A stretch of 15,476 nt of DNA, from positions 1-15,476 of the forward strand of contig JBNKTL010000066.1 in assembly GCA_050298055.1 (NCBI GenBank), read 5' to 3'. Source of the stretch: Spirochaetota bacterium. GTDB lineage: Bacteria > Spirochaetota > UBA4802 > UBA5550. Below the pieces are notes generated by a model, which saw only the letters and a program-made list of their open reading frames with translations, made no database searches and had not been told where the DNA came from. This document shows, one piece after another, positions 393 through 11,461 of the stretch (the first letter of the stretch is position 1; every line of letters starts with the position of its first letter). The translations under genes and the position numbers were made by a program.

Positions 393-1715
393 ATGGATGT
401 ATACTTAAAAACTAAGACACGATATTCTCTCAGTATTAAGGTAATGATAATATATGTACTTCTTGCCTCATTCAATACTGTCTTCTTTATATCTATCATA
501 TTTGAGAACCAGGTTGACCTGATAACCGATAATGCCACCCTTAAAGCTGAAAAACTTGTAAACTCTCTTGTTTACAATATGGAACTGAAAGCCGGTCCGG
601 TTTTTCAGGAGAAGAAAAGCAGGAGCGAGATCATTAACAGCATTTCCGGGATTATTTCGCCTCTTGTGAAGAAGTATGTCCTGTTTTCAGAAAGCGGAGA
701 AAAACTCTATTCGTCGGGGGGGACATTTCAGCTTCCGAAAACCCATGTGCAGAATGTCAAACGGGCACTTGCCGGAAAGGAATTTACCGGGAAACAGTAC
801 CACCTGGTAATCGATGAAAAGTCGGAAATGATGCATTTCTATATTCCCCTGGAGACAGAGGGGGACATGAATTTTCTTGTCTACCTCCCTTTTAATCTTC
901 AAAAGGTCGGAAACAGGTTGAACCAGCTTTACCGGCAGGGGACCCTGGTGTTTGTGGTATCAATTATTTTCCACCTTGTTTTTGCATTGATCCTGTTCAA
1001 GGTTATTGTTAATCCCATCCAGCAGCTTAACAACGGAAGTATGAAACTGTCCGAAGGGGACCTGTCGTACCGGGTGCCCATAAATCGCAATGATGAGCTT
1101 GGTTCACTTGCCCAGTCGTTCAATTTTATGGCCGATTCAATCCAGGACAAGATGGACACCCTTGAAGTCCAGATGAACACCATCAATGAAGCCAGAAAAA
1201 AAATGGAGGAGATGGCCACAACCGATGAACTCACGGGGCTTTATAACCGGAGGTTTATGTTCAGGATGCTGGATGAAGAACTCAGCAGAAGTATCAGAAA
1301 GGATTATAATCTCTCCTTTATTATGATCGATATTGATCACTTTAAGCGGTTTAACGATACGCACGGGCACCAGGTTGGAGACCTTGTTCTGAAAGAAACA
1401 GCAAATGAGATCAAGAACACATGCAGGGTCATCGATGTTGTAGCCCGTTACGGTGGAGAGGAGATTGCCGTGATTGCTCCCGATTGTCCCATCGATGCAC
1501 TTAAAGAATTCTGTGAAAGGATCAGGAAGGCTATTGAAAAAAACAGAATCAGCACACCCGAAGGTGACCTCTCGGTGACTGTGAGCATAGGAGCAACCAG
1601 TTTTGATAAGGTGCTGCTGGATACGATCGGTGACAGCAACCGGCTCATCCTTTTTGCGGATATAGCACTTTATCGTGCAAAGGAGAGGGGGCGGAACCGG
1701 GTTGAGCTTGGATAG
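393..1715 (+). CDS. Membrane-bound sensor diguanylate cyclase (TM - extracytoplasmic domain - TM - HAMP - coiled coil - GGDEF)
   Basis: 440 aa. Two hydrophobic segments; HAMP signature (NPIQQL...GDLSYRVPINRNDELGSLAQSFNFM); DELTGLYNRR; MIDIDHFKRFNDTHGHQVGD; RVID I-site; RYGGEEI active-site motif; C-terminal ADIALYRAKERGRNRV. Confidence 0.95.
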   Translation: MDVYLKTKTRYSLSIKVMIIYVLLASFNTVFFISIIFENQVDLITDNATLKAEKLVNSLVYNMELKAGPVFQEKKSRSEIINSISGIISPLVKKYVLFSESGEKLYSSGGTFQLPKTHVQNVKRALAGKEFTGKQYHLVIDEKSEMMHFYIPLETEGDMNFLVYLPFNLQKVGNRLNQLYRQGTLVFVVSIIFHLVFALILFKVIVNPIQQLNNGSMKLSEGDLSYRVPINRNDELGSLAQSFNFMADSIQDKMDTLEVQMNTINEARKKMEEMATTDELTGLYNRRFMFRMLDEELSRSIRKDYNLSFIMIDIDHFKRFNDTHGHQVGDLVLKETANEIKNTCRVIDVVARYGGEEIAVIAPDCPIDALKEFCERIRKAIEKNRISTPEGDLSVTVSIGATSFDKVLLDTIGDSNRLILFADIALYRAKERGRNRVELG

Positions 1716-1724
1716 GGCAGGATC

Positions 1725-3026
1725 ATGAATATCAGGATTCAGATAACATTAATGCTCTTCTCGGTGGTACTGCTTTTTTCCTTTTTTAAGTTCGTTAATG
1801 ATACAAATGTTGAGATTCGTCTTAATGAACTTACATCCTATTTCCATAATATCGATGTCATGGAGAATAATACGGATGATATTGTCCTGGTGGCGCGCTA
1901 TAACCTGCATAAAAAAATTTACGAAGAAAAGATATCCCGGGAGTCCGCAGATACCCTGGAACACCGCCTTCAACTTCTCAGTGACAGCAGGATTGCAGAC
2001 GTCGGCCAGGGAAAGAGAGATACGGGTATGATGAAGGCGATGTCAATCAGTCTTATTAATTTAAATAGAATGGTCATGGGCAAACCCCCCATCCGGAAGA
2101 TAAAAAAACAGAAAGATCCCCTGAAGCTTATTGACGAAGCATACTATTTTGAAAAGAACTATATCTTCAAAAAAGCCATTGAGATATACCGGAGGGTCCT
2201 GATTGAAAGTAAAATAAGCAGGGCTATTACCGCAAGGGTTCTCCTTCATCTTGGATACAGCTCGGCGCTTGTGGGGGCACATAAGAATGCTGAAAATTAT
2301 TATGAAAGGATCATCAAGGAATACAGCAGCGATAATATTGCCATAACAGCTTCAATACTTTTAAAATATCTCAGGGGATTCGAAAAGGAAACGAAAAGGA
2401 TTAAGAAGTCAGGTATCGGGTCTCTTGAAAAGGGTGAAAAGCTTTACAGCCTGCAGGCGTATGATGATGCTCTGAGCATACTGAAAACAATGGAACTGAA
2501 GGCGGCCCCGGGCCAGGTTTCGCGAATAAAATACTATAAGGCGCAATGCTACAGCGGGATTGGTGAACAGGGAAAGGCGGCGGAAATTCATATGGATATT
2601 ATTGCAACCAATCCCGGGTCAAAGTTTGCCCGTCTTTCTAACAGGAGTCTTTTCCTCATTGGAAACAGGATAGGAGGCGAAAACCGTTTGAAGCGGGCAT
2701 CGGTAAAACTGAACCGGGTGATAAAGGACCCTGTTTTCGATAAAATGCTCAAAACAGAAAAGATATATGCGGTGGATGAGAAAAATCACCAGGTACCTGC
2801 TGATAAAATTATAGTCTCACCTGAAGTCCTGAAAAAGGTGGATGAAGTGTTATTGGTCAAAAAGAGCAGTTACACGGGAAAAAATGTCAAAGTCGAAACC
2901 ATGGATGAAAATGTTTTCACAGGGACTGTCATGTCGGAAAAGAACAATATGTTCAGTATCAGGACTTCTATCGGGGTGATTGATATTCATAAGAACAAGA
3001 TATCCAGTATTCAAATAGTGAAATAG
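1725..3026 (+). CDS. Membrane-anchored tetratricopeptide-repeat protein with a small C-terminal beta domain
   Basis: 433 aa, 9 bp after the DGC stop. N-terminal hydrophobic segment; TPR-like helices (AYYFEKNYIFKKAIEIY, LLHLGYSSALVGAHKNAENYY, YYKAQCYSGIGEQGKAAEIH); beta-rich C-terminus. Confidence 0.8.
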   Translation: MNIRIQITLMLFSVVLLFSFFKFVNDTNVEIRLNELTSYFHNIDVMENNTDDIVLVARYNLHKKIYEEKISRESADTLEHRLQLLSDSRIADVGQGKRDTGMMKAMSISLINLNRMVMGKPPIRKIKKQKDPLKLIDEAYYFEKNYIFKKAIEIYRRVLIESKISRAITARVLLHLGYSSALVGAHKNAENYYERIIKEYSSDNIAITASILLKYLRGFEKETKRIKKSGIGSLEKGEKLYSLQAYDDALSILKTMELKAAPGQVSRIKYYKAQCYSGIGEQGKAAEIHMDIIATNPGSKFARLSNRSLFLIGNRIGGENRLKRASVKLNRVIKDPVFDKMLKTEKIYAVDEKNHQVPADKIIVSPEVLKKVDEVLLVKKSSYTGKNVKVETMDENVFTGTVMSEKNNMFSIRTSIGVIDIHKNKISSIQIVK

Positions 3027-3031
3027 AGTTA

Positions 3032-3943
3032 TTACTCAACAAGGTTCCTGACCAGTCCGGAAAGAGAATTGGCTTTTATCTCATCCAGATAATGGTACCT
3101 GCCGTTTATAGACTCCGCAAGCTCCCGCAATCTGCCGAGACGAACAAAGTTTTTCTCCGTATCAATGAGGAGAGATTCTATACCAAGGTCTCTTATCATT
3201 TCAGCAATTTGTTTTACTTCGGTATATGGCTCAAGCTGTGGATTGATACTCACATTGGCCTTTCCGTCAGATATTAACACGAGTAAGGGTTTGATCTTAT
3301 TATTCTTTTTTAATTCCTTTCGCACCAGGTTAAGGCCTTTAAGCAAACCGTGTGAGAGAGGGGTCTTTCCCCCTGTTGGCATAATTTCCAGCCTTTTGTG
3401 TGCTAGTTCAACACTCGATGTGGGTTCAAGTAAAACTTCCGCTTTTTTTCCCCGAAAAGCAATAAGTCCAACCCTGTCTCTTTTTTGATATGCGTCAACA
3501 AGGAGTGACATCACGGCTCCCTTTGTCTCAACCATTCTCTGCTGCGCGCCCATTGATCCGGAAGAATCCACAATAAAGAGAATTGTATTCCCGATTTTTT
3601 TTTCTCTGACTTTTTCCCGAATATCTTCATTTTTCACGGCAATGGCCATACCGTTTTTGTCCCTGTATACCTGGTGGGGCGCTGCCGCTCTCAATGTAGC
3701 ATCAAAGGCCAGATCGGTAACTTTTCCCCCGGGGACTCTGAAACCGGCATATCTCCCTGTTTTATGAGAACTCCGGGCTTTGCTTCTTTTTCCGAAACCC
3801 TCCCGCTGTCTCCTCTCTGTTTCCGGGGTTATTTTTTTTACTTTAAACTGAGAACCTGTGTGAAAGATCTTTTCCGGTGCGGCCCTCTGTTCGTCTTCCC
3901 GGGTATTTTCATCATCTCCCGTTTCATGGTCTTCGGCATTCAT
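3032..3943 (-). CDS. chlD: vWA (integrin-I) domain half of the ChlD/BchD-type chelatase medium subunit, probably expressed as a -1 frameshift fusion with the upstream ATPase
   Basis: 303 aa ORF. Acidic linker start ([10 protein letters not shown]), [20 protein letters not shown] motif [27 protein letters not shown] and ISDGKANV are all typical of the ChlD/BchD C-terminal half. No SD-like sequence precedes the ATG at 3943. Confidence 0.88.
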
Positions 3944-4986
3944 ATTTTGAGTTTTTTTTTATGTTTTTCGATTGTTTCCTGAAGCTTCTCCTTCTCAATT
4001 CCCGGGTCCTGGAAGGGTCTTTTTCTCATCCTGTGGCCAATCACCAGTTCGGCTGCTTCCTGTACGTCGTCAGGTGTAATCTCCCTGCGAAGGTGAAACG
4101 CCGCAATGGTCATGGCTGTTTTCAGCATGAATAAATCCGCCCTGTGCCCGTCAACTGCCGTCTCAATGGCAATTGACACAATAAGCTGAAATATTTCATT
4201 ATTGTAAGTCACTTCCGGGAGCAGTTTTCTTGCTTCCTGTATCCTTGCAGACAGCTCTTTCTCCTTTTCACTCCATTCATTAACAAATTCTGATTGTCCG
4301 TTTTCGTATTGAAGGCCGCGTTCAAGAATCTGTATTCGTTTATCCGGATCACTGATCCCTTCAATATTAACACAGAGTCCGAACCTGTCCAGAAGCTGGG
4401 GTCTCAGGTCCCCCTCTTCAGGATTCATTGTCCCGATGAGAATAAAACGGGCCGGATGAGAAAATGAGATACTTTCTCTCTGAATGTAATTGACACCCAT
4501 TGCGGCGGCATCCAGAAGGACATCCACAAGATGGTCATCGAGGAGATTGATCTCATCCACGTAAAGGATTCCCCTGTTTACCCGGGCAAGAATTCCCGGT
4601 TCAAAATTCTTTTCACCCTTTTTTATTGCATGTTCAATATCAAGAGTACCTATGACCCTGTCCTCTGTGGCTCCCAGAGGCAGATCTACGACTTCAATAT
4701 TTGCGTCCTTAATCGGCAGCTTTTCTCCATTTTTACTTTTTTCTTTGCAATGACTGCACATTTCATTTATGTTATGGGGATCGCATTTATAGACACAATC
4801 TTCAACAACCTGGATCTTCGGCAAAAGGTTCGCGAGGGCCCTTACCGCGGTAGATTTTGCGGTACCCTTTTCCCCCTGTATTAACACACCCCCGATCTTC
4901 TGGTTGATCGCATTCAGTATAAGCGACTTTTTCATCCTTTCCTGGTCCACTATTGCTGTAAAAGGAAATAGCGCGTTTTTATTCAT
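3940..4986 (-). CDS. chlI: ChlI/BchI-type AAA+ ATPase, chelatase small subunit (also the N-terminal half of the predicted fusion)
   Basis: 348 aa. FPFTAIVDQ start, Walker [24 protein letters not shown], Walker [30 protein letters not shown]. Strong SD AAGGAG at 4999-4994. Confidence 0.93.
3952..3960 (-). other. Candidate programmed -1 frameshift / transcriptional slippage site (A9; A_AAA_AAA heptamer)
   Basis: Minus strand reads CAT AAA AAA AAA CTC AAA ATA TGA in frame 0. The -1 frame reads TAA AAA AAA ACT CAA AAT ATG AAT..., continuous with the vWA ORF. Confidence 0.72.
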
Positions 4987-5037: not shown

Positions 5038-5302
5038 CTACTCAGCTATAGAGTGAAATATAGTTATTTTAATAAATTAATGTCATTCCCGCGGAATCGG
5101 GAATCTACGTTTTTCAATAAAATGGATCCCGGAAGAAACAGGACGCTTCGCATGGCAGGTTTTATTGAGCCGTCCTGGCACGTACCTGCAGACAAACATC
5201 CTGTTTGCTCTCGGATTTGACATGGACGTCAAAAATCCGACCTCTTCGCTTCGCTTCGGCCGGGATGACAGACTTATTAGTTGCTTTGCAAGAGCTGAGT
5301 AG
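5038..5302. mobile_element. Putative MITE-like element bounded by 10-bp perfect inverted repeats
   Basis: CTACTCAGCT (5038-5047) and AGCTGAGTAG (5293-5302) are exact reverse complements flanking a non-coding, hairpin-rich interior. Confidence 0.4.
5081..5270. repeat. REP-like GTCAT(T)CCCG...CGGGATGAC palindromic element with extra nested hairpins
   Basis: Ends are TGTCATTCCCG (5081-5091) and CGGGATGACA (5261-5270). Left hairpin ATTCCCG/CGGGAAT (5085-5104). Right stem ATCCCGG (5126-5132)/CCGGGAT (5260-5266) encloses further stems. It forms a GC-rich island within an AT-rich intergenic region. Confidence 0.7.
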
Positions 5303-5361: not shown

Positions 5362-6303
5362 CTATTTCACCTTCCATAATGTTGAGAGAAAAAGAACCGC
5401 GGCAATGATAAATACAATATTTGACCCAATAGAAATCAGGAGGATTTTTGTCCCCAGTTTTTTCCCGTATATTCCAATATGTGACGGTATGAGAAATCTC
5501 AGCTTTTGAATGACACCCAGAATACTTCCCGTGAGAAGGCTGAGGATAATACCCTCGGGAGTGATCAGTTTTTCATGAAGGAGGTTTCCCGCTATGGTAT
5601 ACGCGGCGATATTATTAACCGATTGGGCGGCGATTATCGGTACTCCCCGGGAGGGTAACGGAAAATAACGGGGGATGACCTCAAAATAAGCCGAAAGCTT
5701 TGTCACGAAACCGGAATCCATAAGCAGAAATAGCAGTATGGTTACCGGAACCATGATTCGCAGAATACCGTAAGAAAGCTTCATGCTTTTTTTCAGGCAG
5801 GGGCCAAGGGCCTCTTTAAATTCTCCTTTTTCCCCGGAAGGATAATTATCATGGTGTTCCGGCGCCCGGTTGAGTATCATTCTTCCGATAATAAGGAATG
5901 TCCCTGTCTTTAAAAAACCGAGTGTTACATTAATAATAAAGTAGATCATTCCTGTTGCGTGAAGTACCGGGAGAATAACAGGAAGGGTGACCCTCCAGTG
6001 CATCAGGCTGATGGGAAATGAATTGACCAGAACGGCAATGATCAGCTCTTTTTCCGTTATCTCTCTGTTCTTATAAAATCCGAAGAGCATTGAATTTGCC
6101 GCCATGGGGGACGCGAAGGCGCTTAAAAACGCGAGACCGCATCCCGCGTTTAAATTGCTGAAATCAGTTACGGGCCTTGTAAACCGTGACAACCTGCCCG
6201 TTAAATTCAGATGCGTCAGTAACTCAGCGATAAAAACACCGAATAACACGAAGGGAATGATTTTCACTATATAGACAAGTGAACTGATGAGTGAATGATA
6301 CAT
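5362..6303 (-). CDS. Polytopic membrane protein, probably nucleoside-recognition Gate-domain family
   Basis: 313 aa with about 8 hydrophobic segments in two similar halves (RFTRPVTDFSNL...AFLSAFASPMAANSMLFGFYKNREITEKE versus YFEVIPRYFPLP...PIIAAQSVNNIAAYTIAGNLLHEKLITPEG). The family assignment is from recall of Gate-domain proteins. Confidence 0.65.
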   Translation of the reverse strand: MYHSLISSLVYIVKIIPFVLFGVFIAELLTHLNLTGRLSRFTRPVTDFSNLNAGCGLAFLSAFASPMAANSMLFGFYKNREITEKELIIAVLVNSFPISLMHWRVTLPVILPVLHATGMIYFIINVTLGFLKTGTFLIIGRMILNRAPEHHDNYPSGEKGEFKEALGPCLKKSMKLSYGILRIMVPVTILLFLLMDSGFVTKLSAYFEVIPRYFPLPSRGVPIIAAQSVNNIAAYTIAGNLLHEKLITPEGIILSLLTGSILGVIQKLRFLIPSHIGIYGKKLGTKILLISIGSNIVFIIAAVLFLSTLWKVK

Positions 6304-6318
6304 TGATTTTTCCCGGCT

Positions 6319-7965
6319 TTATTGTGTAATCTTCGCTTTCCAGAGATTCATGCACAAATTCCATCCCAGGGGCATGGGTTCAAAACCGCGAAGTTTTTTC
6401 CGGTTCCAGGCGACTATGCTGAAAGACTCAAAATATAAAGGCATGACGTTACTCTCATAGATAATCTGCTGTGTTTTCTCATGGGCCTTTTCCCTCTGCG
6501 AGGGAATGTTCGAATAGAGATACTGATAAAAATATTCATCCAGTTGGGGATTATTGTAAAGGTTAAGCCACGATTTGTTCCTCGTGTAATAAAACATATG
6601 GTATCTCATCTGTGGCCAGAATGCCATCTGGAAGCGGTTCTTTACAAGGCCGTTCACATGGGCCCCCAGTTCGAGCATCCGGAGCTTAATGTCAAAACCG
6701 ACCTCCTTGAGTTGTGCCTGTATGATCTCCCCGATGATTTTATAATGAGGATCAAAATAATTCAGTGAAAGAGTGACCGATAACTCTTTCCCCTTCTTTT
6801 CACGTATCCCGTTGTTGTCCCTGTCTTCCCAGCCGGCTTTTTTGAGAAGACGTTTCGCTTTGGAAATATCGCTTGCTGTTCTTTCTATATTCTGATTATA
6901 AAGGGGATGACTTTCCGGAATAGGACCATGAATGCAGCGGGCTGTTTCGTGTATGATCCTGTTGATGGCTTTCATATCAACGGCATGCTTGACCGCTTTT
7001 CTTACACCGGGATCGTTGAATGGGGGCTTTCTGTAATTGAGGACAAGATAGCTGAGAGAAGGATCGATATCAGCGGGTTTTTTTACCGCAAAACCGCTTT
7101 TTCTGAGCATGATAACATTCTCACGGGATATCTTATCAAAATGATCGATACCCGTCATATCGATGTCCCCGGCTTCAAGGGCCAGGGAGCGGGTCTGGGG
7201 ATCGGGTATTACCTTAAATATTAATTCCGGTATCCCGGCCTTTCCCTGCCAGTGGTATTGATTTGATTTCAGGGTAATATGCCGGGTCCTCACATGCTCT
7301 CCTATCTTGTAGGGGCCTGTTCCGATAAAACCCGTTACCCGCTCGTCTTTTGAGGGCTTCAGGATGGGGCTGATATGTGTTGCAGCAAGATCATCTAAAA
7401 AAAGCGTATAGGGCCTTTTAAGGATAAAGGTAAGAGTGTGATCATCAATAATCTTTATTGTTTTTATGGGACTCCAACGGGGAAGGAGTTTATTGAAACT
7501 GAAATCCCCGTATTTGGATTTTCCCTTTCTCCCTTTTGTTCCGGCGTTTGCATTATATATCTTTCTGTTCACAGGACGATTTCTCTTTTTCTTATTTTGA
7601 CGCGCCTTTTCCCTGTAGGTGAAAGATTCCTTTACGCAACGGCTTGTTAATGCCGTTCCATCTGAAAATTTGATCCCCTTTTTAATTGTGAATGTGTAAG
7701 ACAACCCGTTTTTGCTCTTTTCCCATTTTTCCGCGAGAGAGGGGATAAAACTGCCTTTTTTGTCCCGGGTTACGAGAGTCTGAAAGATCAGGCAGTTAAA
7801 TCCCTTGTGGGACCACACGTCGGAAACACGCCAGTCCCGGGAAATCCCTACAACAAGTTTTTCCGGATTCCCGAAATCATTTTTTTTACACTGGAGCAGT
7901 GAGAAGAAAAGAAGAGCTGTCATCCCAAAACGGATTATTCTTCCTGCTGTCATTTTATTTATCAT
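6319..7965 (-). CDS. ABC transporter substrate-binding lipoprotein, family 5 (NikA/DppA/OppA-like)
   Basis: SBP_bac_5 signatures PSLAEKWEKSKNGLSYTFTIKKGIKFSDGT, IGTGPYK, PFNDPGVRKAVKHAVD and IQAQLKEVG; signal peptide ending FSLLQ-C. I moved the start from 7977 to the ATG at 7965 because it has GGAG 6 nt upstream and an ATGA overlap with the preceding stop. Confidence 0.9.
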   Translation of the reverse strand: MINKMTAGRIIRFGMTALLFFSLLQCKKNDFGNPEKLVVGISRDWRVSDVWSHKGFNCLIFQTLVTRDKKGSFIPSLAEKWEKSKNGLSYTFTIKKGIKFSDGTALTSRCVKESFTYREKARQNKKKRNRPVNRKIYNANAGTKGRKGKSKYGDFSFNKLLPRWSPIKTIKIIDDHTLTFILKRPYTLFLDDLAATHISPILKPSKDERVTGFIGTGPYKIGEHVRTRHITLKSNQYHWQGKAGIPELIFKVIPDPQTRSLALEAGDIDMTGIDHFDKISRENVIMLRKSGFAVKKPADIDPSLSYLVLNYRKPPFNDPGVRKAVKHAVDMKAINRIIHETARCIHGPIPESHPLYNQNIERTASDISKAKRLLKKAGWEDRDNNGIREKKGKELSVTLSLNYFDPHYKIIGEIIQAQLKEVGFDIKLRMLELGAHVNGLVKNRFQMAFWPQMRYHMFYYTRNKSWLNLYNNPQLDEYFYQYLYSNIPSQREKAHEKTQQIIYESNVMPLYFESFSIVAWNRKKLRGFEPMPLGWNLCMNLWKAKITQ

Positions 7966-8735
7966 GCCGTTCTCCATTTAAAAGTTTCGTATTCAATCAG
8001 CTTTTTTGTATATTCGTCTTTTGGCGCCGAAAAGAGACCTTCAACGGGGCCCTGTTCCAGAATCCTGCCGCTTCGCATAACGGCAACCCTGCCGCAAAAA
8101 TTCCGTATGACTTCAATGTCATGGGAGATGAATATGATCGTGGTTTTGTATTTTTCCCGGATTTCCTTTAAAAGCGAGATAACCTGGGCCTGTACGGAGA
8201 CGTCAAGGGCGGCTGTGGGCTCGTCGGCTATAATGAGTTCAGGGTTCAGCGTCAGTATTCTCGCGATAACCGCCCTCTGGTTCTCACCCCCGCTTACCTC
8301 GTGGGGATATCGCTCCGGAACATCCGGCCTCAGCCCCACAATGTCCCTGTATTTTTTTAAGATAATTTCCGTGTCCTGTTTTTTTATTTTTTTATAATAC
8401 CGGAGGGGTTCAAGGATGCTGTCGCCTATCTTCATGCGGGGATTGAGGGACTCCTGCGGGTTCTGCCATATTATCTGGAGCCGCGGTCTTATCTTCTTCA
8501 GTTCCCTTCCGGAGGCTTTTAAAATATCATGCCCGTTTAAAAGAATAGTGCCCTCATCAGGGGGCAGGAGCCCAATGATCAGTTTTGCCAGGGTCGTTTT
8601 TCCGCATCCGCTTTCCCCCGTTAAACCGAAAATCTCGCCGTTGTTTACCGTGAGATCAACTCCGTCAACCGCCTTGATCAGACGGTCCTTTGTTATGTAA
8701 TATTTTTTCAGGCCGGATATTTTAATCATCTGCAT
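7962..8735 (-). CDS. ABC transporter ATP-binding subunit (DppF/OppF/NikE-like)
   Basis: 257 aa. Walker A GESGCGKT, Q-loop WQNPQESLNPR, signature VSGGENQR, Walker B IIADEPTAALD, H-loop ISHD. Confidence 0.93.
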   Translation of the reverse strand: MQMIKISGLKKYYITKDRLIKAVDGVDLTVNNGEIFGLTGESGCGKTTLAKLIIGLLPPDEGTILLNGHDILKASGRELKKIRPRLQIIWQNPQESLNPRMKIGDSILEPLRYYKKIKKQDTEIILKKYRDIVGLRPDVPERYPHEVSGGENQRAVIARILTLNPELIIADEPTAALDVSVQAQVISLLKEIREKYKTTIIFISHDIEVIRNFCGRVAVMRSGRILEQGPVEGLFSAPKDEYTKKLIEYETFKWRTA

Positions 8736-9657
8736 GGCACCTCGCGTAATGGTCCTGGTATCGTTCTTTCATTGCCGGATGTTCCTTTTCGCACTTCTTT
8801 ACCTGTTCTTCGCATCGCGCGTAAAACCTGCACCCCGCGGGTACATCAATAAGGCTGGCGGAGCGGCCTGCTATGGGTTTCATCCCGTTGCCGGGCAGCG
8901 CGGCGACCAGGGCCCGGGAATAGGGATGGACCGGGTGAGAGAGAAAATTTTGCCCGGGACAGTTTTCAACTATTTCACCGGCATACATAACGGCAATCCT
9001 GTGGCAGAGATGATGGGCCAGCTTAAGGTTATGGGTAATAAAGATCAACGCGATACCCAGTTCTCCGCATAGGGATTCCAGGAGTTCAGAGATATACCGT
9101 TGAAGGCCCGTATCAAGTCCCTTTGAAGGCTCATCGGCTATGAGCAGAGAGGGTCTGCCGATAATTCCCATGGCAATCATGATCCTTGTGAGCTCTCCGC
9201 CGCTTAATTGAAAAGGGTAGCTCTTTAAAATTCTGTCCGGATCATGAAAACCGCAGAGTTCCAGTGTTTCCCGGGCGTGAGCCCGGGCGTTTTCCCGGTT
9301 TGTTTTTTTTATTTTTATGGCGGCTTCGCATAACTGCCTTTCTGTTGTATAAACGGGATTGAGAGATAGCAGGGGGTTCTGGAAGATCATCCCTATTTCA
9401 TTGCCCCGTATAATTCTCATTTCACAGGCGTCACATTTAAGGATGTCCCGTCCGTTAAAGAATATTTCACCCCGGATGACGCAGTTTTGGGGAAGAAGGC
9501 GCATGAGAGACAATCCCAGGATGGTTTTCCCCGATCCGGATTCTCCCACAACAGCGATTTTGTCCCCCTGCCTGACTTCAAGATTTACTCCGTTAACGGC
9601 TTTGACCTCCCCGTTTTTTGTTTTAAAAGAGGTGGTAATATTTCTCAGCGATAACAT
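8722..9657 (-). CDS. ABC transporter ATP-binding subunit (DppD/OppD/NikD-like) with C-terminal HPY/Cys extension
   Basis: 311 aa. GESGSGKT, FQNPLLSLNP, LSGGELTR, LIADEPSKGLD, ITHN, HPVHPYS, and C-terminal CRFYARC-x6-C...C. Confidence 0.93.
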   Translation of the reverse strand: MLSLRNITTSFKTKNGEVKAVNGVNLEVRQGDKIAVVGESGSGKTILGLSLMRLLPQNCVIRGEIFFNGRDILKCDACEMRIIRGNEIGMIFQNPLLSLNPVYTTERQLCEAAIKIKKTNRENARAHARETLELCGFHDPDRILKSYPFQLSGGELTRIMIAMGIIGRPSLLIADEPSKGLDTGLQRYISELLESLCGELGIALIFITHNLKLAHHLCHRIAVMYAGEIVENCPGQNFLSHPVHPYSRALVAALPGNGMKPIAGRSASLIDVPAGCRFYARCEEQVKKCEKEHPAMKERYQDHYARCHADD

Positions 9658-9663
9658 GACCCG

Positions 9664-10506
9664 TTACAATTCCTCCGGGTGGATTCCCGTTTTATGGCGC
9701 GGGTCCAGAATATTCCTTAAGCCTTCCCCGAACAGGTTAAAACCGAGTACCGTGATCATGATGGCGATCCCGGGAAAGACCGTAAGGTGGGGAGCGGTCC
9801 GCATATAGGTCCTCCCTTCGTTGAGCATCATGCCCCAGTCGGCGGAAGGGGGCTGCGCTCCCAGTCCGAGAAAACTGAAAGCGGAAACAATAAGGATCGT
9901 AAAGCCGGTGGACATGGACGCCAGGGTAATAACCGGCGCCACGGCATTGGGCAGCAGGTATTTTTTGAAAATATAGACACGGGAAAATCCCAGGACCCTG
10001 GCGGCGGCAATGTACTCCTTTTCCTTTACGGACAAAATGCTTCCCCGGATAACCCGGGCGAATTCAGTCCAGCCCAGAACAATCAGTGCGGCCATTATGC
10101 TGGCGGGTCCCGGAGAGAGAACAGTGGCAATGACAATGGCAAGGACCAGTGAGGGTAATGCCATGGCAATTTCAATGAGCTTTGATATAAACATGTCCGT
10201 CAAACCGCCGAAATAACCCGCAGCGGTCCCGAGAACTGTGCCGATCCCGGTTTGCACCGCCACCACGACAAAAGCTATTGAGAGTGAAAGGCGTGTTCCG
10301 TAAATAATTCTGCTTAACACGCATCTTCCCAGGTAATCGCAGCCAAGGGGAAATTGCGGACCGGGACCTGACCCGGCAAGGTCCAGGTGCTGGCTGTAGG
10401 GATCATTGGGCGCGATAAGGGGAGAGAGCAGGGCAATGGCTATTAGTATGAAAATGATAATGACCCCGGTGAGCGCCGTTTTGTTATGGAATATCTCTTT
10501 TATCAT
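9664..10506 (-). CDS. ABC transporter permease (DppC/OppC/NikC-like)
   Basis: 280 aa. PLGCDYLGRCVLSRIIYGTRLSL, EAA-loop EYIAAARVLG, SFLGLGAQPPSADWGMML, FNLFGEGLRNILDPR. AGGTG SD upstream. Confidence 0.93.
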   Translation of the reverse strand: MIKEIFHNKTALTGVIIIFILIAIALLSPLIAPNDPYSQHLDLAGSGPGPQFPLGCDYLGRCVLSRIIYGTRLSLSIAFVVVAVQTGIGTVLGTAAGYFGGLTDMFISKLIEIAMALPSLVLAIVIATVLSPGPASIMAALIVLGWTEFARVIRGSILSVKEKEYIAAARVLGFSRVYIFKKYLLPNAVAPVITLASMSTGFTILIVSAFSFLGLGAQPPSADWGMMLNEGRTYMRTAPHLTVFPGIAIMITVLGFNLFGEGLRNILDPRHKTGIHPEEL

Positions 10507-10522
10507 TATTCACCTGTTTCCT

Positions 10523-11461
10523 CTAAGTATTATCAAACCTGATCCTGGGATCAAGATAGACATAGGAGATGTCCACAAGGAGATTTATCAGGACAAAAAC
10601 CGCGGCTATCATCATTACACAGGCCTGGATCACCGGGTAGTCCCGGGCAAAGCAGGAGTCAACAACCAGTTTGCCGATCCCCTCCCAGGCGAAAATTGTC
10701 TCGATGATCACGGCAACCTGAAATATCCGGGCAAACTTTAAACCGGTATAGGTCACCACGGGAAGAAGGGCGTTCCTTACGGCGTGGAAGAGAATGATAT
10801 ATCCCTCTTTAAGTCCCTTGGAACGGGCGGTCCTGATATAATCCTGCTCCAGCTCTTCCAGCACGCATGTTCGCACAAGCCGTGTTGTAAAGGCGGCCAT
10901 GGATACCGCCAGGGTCATACAGGGAAGAATAAAATGCCGGATGCTTCCCTGTCCGAATACGGGAAGGAGCCCCAGTTTCACGGAAAAAAGGAGTATCAGG
11001 AGAAGAGCCAACCAGTAATTGGGGAAGGATATCAGGACAAGTGTCCCCCACATGACCGACCTGTCGAAGAGTGAACCCTTTTTGACCGCTGAAACCACCC
11101 CGAGGACCATTGAAAGAAGAAGTGAAAGGAGCAGGGATATTGTCCCCAGCTTTAGTGTAACGGGAAGCCGGATAAGTATTTCCGAGATGACCGGCTGGTC
11201 GGTGCGGACGGATATCCCGAAATCGCCCTCCAGAATATGGCCGAGCCAGATCATATACTGCTGAGAGACGGGAGCATTCAGCCCCATCTCTTTGCCGATC
11301 CACCGGATCTGTTCCGGGGTGACTTCGTTGCCGTACCGGGCCATTGCCATGACCACCGCGGGGTCTCCCGGTGCCAGGCGAATAAGGGAAAATGAGATAA
11401 TAGAGACGGCGAGCATCACAATGATCACGGATATGATATTTTTTATGATGTATCTACTCAT
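10523..11461 (-). CDS. ABC transporter permease (DppB/OppB/NikB-like)
   Basis: 312 aa. LAPGDPA, GDFGIS, QDYIRTARSKGL, ETIFAWEGIG, RDYPVIQA, YVYLDPRIR. Overlaps the cobN end by 8 bp. Confidence 0.93.
   Translation of the reverse strand: MSRYIIKNIISVIIVMLAVSIISFSLIRLAPGDPAVVMAMARYGNEVTPEQIRWIGKEMGLNAPVSQQYMIWLGHILEGDFGISVRTDQPVISEILIRLPVTLKLGTISLLLSLLLSMVLGVVSAVKKGSLFDRSVMWGTLVLISFPNYWLALLLILLFSVKLGLLPVFGQGSIRHFILPCMTLAVSMAAFTTRLVRTCVLEELEQDYIRTARSKGLKEGYIILFHAVRNALLPVVTYTGLKFARIFQVAVIIETIFAWEGIGKLVVDSCFARDYPVIQACVMMIAAVFVLINLLVDISYVYLDPRIRFDNT

Follow-up and report, generated by a model that had tools for sequence, protein, structure and literature searches.

A conserved poly-A frame break in a chlD-type chelatase gene of a Spirochaetota bacterium and its CobN-like neighbor

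Anatomy of the frame break

Does a frame break at a run of nine A residues allow one chelatase gene of a spirochete to encode two subunits, or is it an assembly error, the boundary between two genes, or a sign of decay? The question is raised by a locus in a draft genome (G000) of a Spirochaetota bacterium. The window is the whole stretch of DNA that was analyzed (15,476 nucleotides), and the entire feature lies on its minus strand (Table 1). An earlier note on this DNA had placed a -1 break at A9 between an ATPase ORF and a vWA ORF. We recomputed the frames, stops, and product lengths (348 and 651 aa), and they agree. The 348-aa ORF ends in CAT AAA AAA AAA CTC AAA ATA TGA; the TGA occupies 3942-3940 and is overlapped by an ATG at 3943. 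In the -1 frame, a TAA at 3961-3959 blocks reading from upstream; from 3958 onward no stop occurs until the one at 3034-3032.

Table 1. Coordinates of the frame break, its gene cluster, and in-frame relatives. Positions without a locus prefix are those of the window.
Feature	Position	Strand	Remarks
A9 slippery tract	3952..3960	-	AAA AAA AAA in the 0 frame; candidate recoding site; A9-A11 in 14/14 frameshifted homologs
0-frame ORF, ChlI-like AAA+ subunit, 348 aa	3940..4986	-	Walker A GEKGTAKS, Walker B LYVDE, DRF, HRMR
-1 frame, acidic linker and vWA	3032..3958	-	MIDAS DSSGS; C-terminal half of the putative 651-aa ChlD-like product
ATGA stop/start overlap	3940..3943	-	found in 1/14 frameshifted homologs
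Second A9, within the vWA coding frame	3595..3603	-	not conserved
A8 run, within the vWA coding frame	3832..3839	-	not conserved
Gate-domain membrane protein	5362..6303	-	adjoins cobN also in G001 and G016
Nickel/peptide-type ABC importer	6319..11461	-	two permease-like and two ATPase-like ORFs, substrate-binding protein
Cys-rich CobN-like large subunit, 1299 aa	11454..15353	-	PF02514; NF004646 over cut-off
In-frame chlD with A9-A10 at the recoding site	L043:9764-11740 (G001)		
In-frame chlD with A9-A10 at the recoding site	L069:5992-7977		
In-frame chlD with A9-A10 at the recoding site	L092:3447-5531		

The unshifted product has a computed mass of 39.3 kDa. With one A added, or with a -1 shift, the product would be 651 aa long (73.2 kDa, computed), and the junction is identical for an added A and a ribosomal -1 shift (...HKKK-TQN...). 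With the halves scored separately against TIGR02442 (641 positions, cut-off 779), the 348-aa ORF covers positions 1-335 with 505 bits and the linker-vWA ORF covers positions 362-641 with 302 bits. The motor motifs of class I chelatases (Walker A/B, arginine finger, and MIDAS) are all intact in the two frames. Under standard decoding, a ribosome would meet the stop three codons past the A9 and release the 348-aa ChlI-like ATPase. A gain of one base at the A9 would open the linker and vWA frame and yield the 651-aa ChlD-like subunit. Jointly, the two subunits would act as the motor that drives the CobN-like protein encoded in the same cluster. Judged from its sequence, the locus is very probably one chlD-type gene that gives two subunits through a recoding site at the A9, and the frameshift is very likely to take place at that tract. 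Slippage at the other A9 or the A8, both within the vWA frame, would shorten the long subunit.

The break sits at a homopolymer, and G000 (4.7 Mb, 98% complete) is a draft of 199 contigs, both of which would suit a homopolymer assembly error within a single gene. However, among four runs compared as DNA contigs, one contig of X1 spans the whole stretch (3 substitutions, no gap) and one of X2 crosses the tract (4 substitutions, no gap), and both keep A9. These two assemblies belong to one study, X1 is possibly the source sample, and contigs drop rare variants; X3 and X4 do not reach the tract. Other NCBI contigs also have entries for the 348-aa and 303-aa split products, and independent orthologs that carry the same break (see below) already contradict an error. 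The A9 of the earlier note is thus genuine rather than a misassembled A10, and an assembly error is practically out of the question.

A second alternative is a pair of separate genes, a chlI and a stand-alone linker-vWA gene that starts at 3943 through ATGA coupling, with the latter protein made either alone or as a third product. The overlap exists, and gene callers predict the 303-aa protein. But an ORF from 3943 would begin inside an unstructured linker, the two halves are fused in thousands of relatives, and a start codon in that frame <=~30 nt from the stop was found in 1/14 frameshifted homologs, namely in the window. Any TGA that follows an A makes ATGA, so chance suffices for the overlap, which is probably incidental. 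As a conserved design, ATGA coupling is ruled out by the same count, and an independent start at 3943 is not what the frameshifted genes share, in line with the earlier note. We regard two separate genes as very unlikely, and we give the same low weight to some re-initiation at 3943 in the source species.

The single-gene reading also fits the content of the source genome, which encodes FlaA and so is probably that of a spirochete. The chlI/chlD-like genes of G000 number one, and so do its cobN genes; both are in the window. As the earlier note had proposed, no separate chlI or full-length chlD was found elsewhere in this 98%-complete genome, a count that rests on chlI/chlD-like matches, with a divergent cobS-type gene lying outside the family search.

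Conservation of the break and its exceptions

The close ortholog set comprises eight genomes with one ortholog each (62-66% identity, window included). In seven of the eight, the frame breaks by -1 at one shared codon, with A9 or A10 there. At the KHKKK/SKKK codons, the break occurs with A9 in G000, G005, and G115 and with A10 in G016, G058, G072, and G120; the ortholog of G001 is in frame, with A10. The tract is kept even where AAG outnumbers AAA among Lys codons (9 AAA to 24 AAG in G005; 10 to 20 in G072). On these alignments, conservation of the poly-A break exceeds chance.

A wider sample was drawn from the class (122 genomes, 14 with a match at E <= 1e-80) and from other sources. The locus set holds 101 loci, of which 79 came from a metagenome scan, 5 from a genome-contig scan, and 17 from the class; the metagenome scan was taken as far as its top 80 hits, out of at least 575. 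Of 140 AAA+ rows, we left out 10 that were cut by contig ends and 2 duplicates. Fourteen genes are frameshifted, all by -1, with A9 in seven, A10 in six, and A11 in one. The poly-A and frame break that the earlier note expected in orthologs are therefore kept in 7/8 close orthologs and, as A9-A11, in 14/14 frameshifted genes. No chlI neighbor was seen in the fetched loci of these 14. Counted over related sequences rather than independent draws, a run of A9 or longer at this place was present in 0/40 in-frame chlD genes with a chlI neighbor, 0/51 stand-alone chlI genes, and 3/23 in-frame chlD genes without a chlI neighbor. The genome-contig scan with the vWA half yielded only five distant in-frame loci, and sampling 401 genomes across the phylum brought in a single further match at the cut-off from outside the class.

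Two cases stand apart. G056 has a frameshifted chlD (A10, further downstream), a short in-frame chlD elsewhere, and several cobN matches (L025/C50, L009/C11). This second, in-frame chlD shows that the absence of any further subunit gene is a rule with exceptions. At L034:6900-7921, a stand-alone chlI is split across two frames near residue 105.

The three in-frame genes that keep the tract (Table 1) are nested among frameshifted ones. A quick IQ-TREE analysis of 123 AAA+ domains places the window in a clade of 10 (SH-aLRT 97) made up of 8 frameshifted genes and 2 in-frame, tract-keeping genes (L043, which is that of G001, and L069). A second clade of 6 (SH-aLRT 87) joins the in-frame L092 to 5 frameshifted genes. 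In all three in-frame genes, stops lie in both other frames within 1-11 codons. No further chlI match was found in G001. The chlD protein of G001 is present in an NCBI assembly and in a Logan assembly, and that of L069 on seven contigs; the G+C content of L069 is 27%, and such A runs are likely by chance there. KHK(K) is the natural end of the AAA+ helix in full-length relatives, and KKK is found nearby at the protein level in 17/119 of them. A protein-level KKK was for this reason rejected as a mark of hidden recoding.

The nested in-frame genes, with their A9-A10, are what DNA-level phase variation or a decaying gene would produce, with A9 as off and A10 as on. But the -1 break is seen with A9 and with A10, so that it is the frame offset, not the run length, that is conserved. 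The catalytic motifs and long open frames are also kept in both halves, and no length variant appears in the X1 or X2 contigs, which drop rare variants. Phase variation or decay is highly improbable.

Recoding of this kind is already known. The earlier note had stated that frameshifted chlD genes at poly-A sites are a described device; this matches PMC3711429 and PMC9227772, and the locus is a member of the published fs-chlD device. PMC3711429 describes a cluster of 23 chelatase genes with -1 shifts and reports that chelatase cassettes with 11, 9, and 7 A's shift at 63, 40, and 10% in E. coli. PMC9227772 counts 169 fs-chlD genes in 167 genomes, Spirochaeta thermophila included, and proposes a model of cobN with fs-chlD. 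A 2016 review raised the question of whether these recoded chelatases might act on a different cation (PMC5009743). As in published fs-chlD, the AAA+ and vWA halves here are adjacent and in order, with one -1 frameshift at poly-A between them, and are annotated as two genes; an A-rich site (A_AAA_AAR/poly-A) is conserved at the break, there is no separate chlI, and there is a cobN partner. Unlike the published cases, the locus combines fs-chlD and cobN without a corrin-ring pathway, which corresponds neither to stage 1 (no large subunit) nor to stage 8 (aerobic B12 route) in the published description. The CobN-ChlID cobaltochelatase of stage 8 shares the CobN-family large subunit, but its corrin-ring pathway was not found here, in draft genomes. 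Antonov 2020 is reportedly further work on frameshifted chlD.

The dnaX gene of Thermus thermophilus is a second known system in which a nine-A run, with stops nearby, yields a short and a long subunit of a single AAA+ complex (PMC5009743, PMC3711429). Its long form is in frame, whereas the long ChlD-like form here would need a slip. The dnaX layout is that of the in-frame relatives L043, L069, and L092. These may be a dnaX-like reversal in which a slip gives the short form; a slipped allele is equally possible.

Polymerase or ribosome

Since the protein is the same for a ribosomal -1 shift and an added A, RNA alone can tell them apart. We lean toward a shift that is mostly RNA polymerase adding an A. 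As in programmed transcriptional slippage of the dnaX type, an uninterrupted run of at least nine A's is present in 14/14 frameshifted genes, and the tract is never shorter. Bacterial RNA polymerase slips efficiently at runs of nine A/T (PMC5009743).

Tandem -1 slippage of the ribosome on A_AAA_AAA, the published route for fs-chlD, could yield the same two products; this is a serious possibility, though somewhat short of an even one. The heptamer is in phase in 14/14 frameshifted genes, the 0-frame stop is near (median 4 codons), and fs-chlD is treated as ribosomal in PMC9227772 and PMC5009743. The A7 cassette cited above still shifts, at 10% (PMC3711429), but a 7- or 8-A site is used by 0/14 of our genes. 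Stimulatory 3' structures are described for fs-chlD in PMC9227772, where they are usual, not universal. At this locus one is absent: no stable 3' hairpin in the window rose above shuffles (z -0.4 to +0.8), and none was conserved among 17 homologs (z -1.6 to +1.4). Nor was a consistent upstream SD stimulator found in the window's clade; the upstream SD in the window is weak (-4.0 kcal/mol with the 7-base anti-SD core).

The heptamer is also widespread in ordinary genes of G000. A simple calling rule gave 1833 ORFs >= 300 aa, in which the in-phase heptamers A_AAA_AAA and A_AAA_AAG number 698 and 505. Relative to a codon-shuffled expectation, sense A6-A8 runs in these ORFs are at 1.4x and A9 runs at 0.53x; A10 occurs once vs 35 expected, and A11+ is absent vs 22 expected. 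Similarly, KKK is coded AAA AAA AAA in 19 of 618 cases vs 104 expected. With A10+ rare, A9 depleted, and the heptamer common, G000 shuns exactly the lengths kept at the site. This genome-wide avoidance of A9+ but not of the heptamer leans toward polymerase slippage, although replication slippage would equally produce avoidance of long A runs. The A9 and A8 in the vWA frame and the A9+ runs in 52 places in other long ORFs of G000 are tolerated, so slippage there is not very high, or context matters. A nearby stop in the third frame is expected under polymerase slippage. The distance to that stop has a median of 3 codons vs 6-7.5, a marginal difference (p 0.045-0.18) among kin that are not independent.

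The CobN-like protein and its metal

In the window, cobN is followed by genes for a nickel/peptide-type ABC importer and a Gate protein, and then by the chelatase gene. The CobN-like protein scores 1631 over the NF004646 cut-off of 1468, falls just under that of TIGR02257 (820.8 vs 822.05), and is below the cut-off of TIGR02025. A Cys-rich motif, QPKRGCxGxxCxGxVCKILHD, and a CC pair are found in the CobN of 8/8 orthologs. The binding protein of the importer matches PF00496, and its top NCBIfam match is the nickel protein NikA, below cut-off; the other four importer ORFs were assigned from translations and by tblastn to ABC ATPases. In seven relatives, cobN lies within ~4 kb of the chlD gene. 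The loci of relatives, in the part of the neighbors scanned, encode a TonB receptor, a FecCD importer, and often an ABC-2 exporter and ExbB. A three-subunit enzyme of CobN and both recoded subunits, as the earlier note had proposed, is plausible.

Other elements of the window are a REP-like palindromic repeat at 5076-5160, between the Gate and chelatase genes, with 14 blastn hits in G000 (self included). On the plus strand, 393-3026 encodes a HAMP-GGDEF diguanylate cyclase and, after it, a 433-aa protein that has no Pfam match; the gene of the latter converges on the vWA stop with a gap of five bases.

Genes for B12 ring synthesis were sought in the eight cluster-bearing genomes. Neither cbiC nor cobH was found in any of them (0/8; drafts, 82-98% complete), and cobQ was found in one, G000. 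In G000, cbiD and cbiK were not found, and there is one tetrapyrrole methylase. No Rfam riboswitch matched in the window or in 11 loci.

A NikR gene is present in 6/8 genomes, and G000 has NiFe hydrogenases. Measured against a consensus from another phylum (deltaproteobacterial; PMC545781), NikR-type boxes upstream of the cluster are clear in 2/8 and degenerate in 3/8 (G016, G115, G005). In G058, a perfect GTGTTAC-N14-GTAACAC lies 75 nt ahead of the cluster. G000 has a perfect palindrome, GTATTAC-N13-GTAATAC, at C66:15702-15728, beyond the window and ~380 nt before cobN; it is one of two such palindromes in G000, and a short N run separates it from cobN. No box was seen upstream in G001, G120, and G072, where start codons were guessed. 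Elsewhere in G000, an exact GTGTTAC-N13-GTAACAC box (C49:37664-37690; L137:9665) precedes an operon for a TonB receptor, DUF4198, a 4Fe-4S protein, HGD-D, a BcrAD/BadFG ATPase, and TonB. The promoter region of this operon shares a TTGACA-containing stretch with the region upstream of cobN.

Given the Cys-rich CobN, the importers, the NikR-type boxes, and the lack of a cbiC match in 8/8 genomes, the CobN here probably does not serve as a B12 cobaltochelatase. From the same gene content, we see about an even chance that the enzyme takes an imported chelate of nickel (or cobalt) as its substrate rather than serving B12 ring synthesis. A cobaltochelatase could instead salvage imported metal-free or incomplete corrin and feed cobQ-cobD-cobC. 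G000 does have cobQ with cobD-like and cobC-like neighbors and no ring pathway that we found, and its CobN is over the NF004646 cut-off. But cobQ was not found in the other seven genomes with the cluster, and the cluster has NikR-type boxes instead of a B12 riboswitch. Such a role in corrin salvage is unlikely. The cobQ, cobD-like, and cobC-like genes (L050, G000:C20:45040-49500) would be those of late-step corrinoid salvage; a link of the cluster to this salvage was rejected, as cobQ does not co-occur with it among the eight genomes.

A further comparison is offered by the class I chelatases CobNST/ChlHID and by the Hmu/Btu de-chelatase operon with HmuS (PMC12583661). These likewise have a CobN-family large subunit, and a further likeness is that a TonB receptor, an ABC importer, and ExbB flank CobN in relatives. 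HmuS is described without ATP-driven I/D partners, whereas the CobN here has a Cys-rich motif and NikR-type boxes. Neither an in-frame, dnaX-like chlD nor a NikR-controlled CobN was found in the literature covered (titles and abstract openings of papers outside subscription).

It is the enzyme served, apparently linked to nickel and not to B12 synthesis, that is unusual here, rather than the recoding. Interest remains in a test of the slippage mechanism, in a partner that probably has no B12 role, and in the reversed form, should it exist. In annotation terms, the locus would be no pseudogene, and the 303-aa "vWA protein" would not count as a gene of its own. For recoding, a clade that has no hairpin and always at least nine A's would be a clean test case of transcription versus translation. 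One rather doubtful picture would join these threads: polymerase slippage may set the small:medium ratio of a NikR-controlled, Cys-rich CobN nickel (de)chelatase in bacteria unable to build corrin, in a device that flips to a dnaX-like form (G001, L069, L092). If this is true, a ChlI subunit also lies concealed in some in-frame chlD genes that look ordinary. For metal biology, the locus would put a recoded chelatase next to importers and NikR-type boxes in a set of genomes that yielded no corrin-ring gene.
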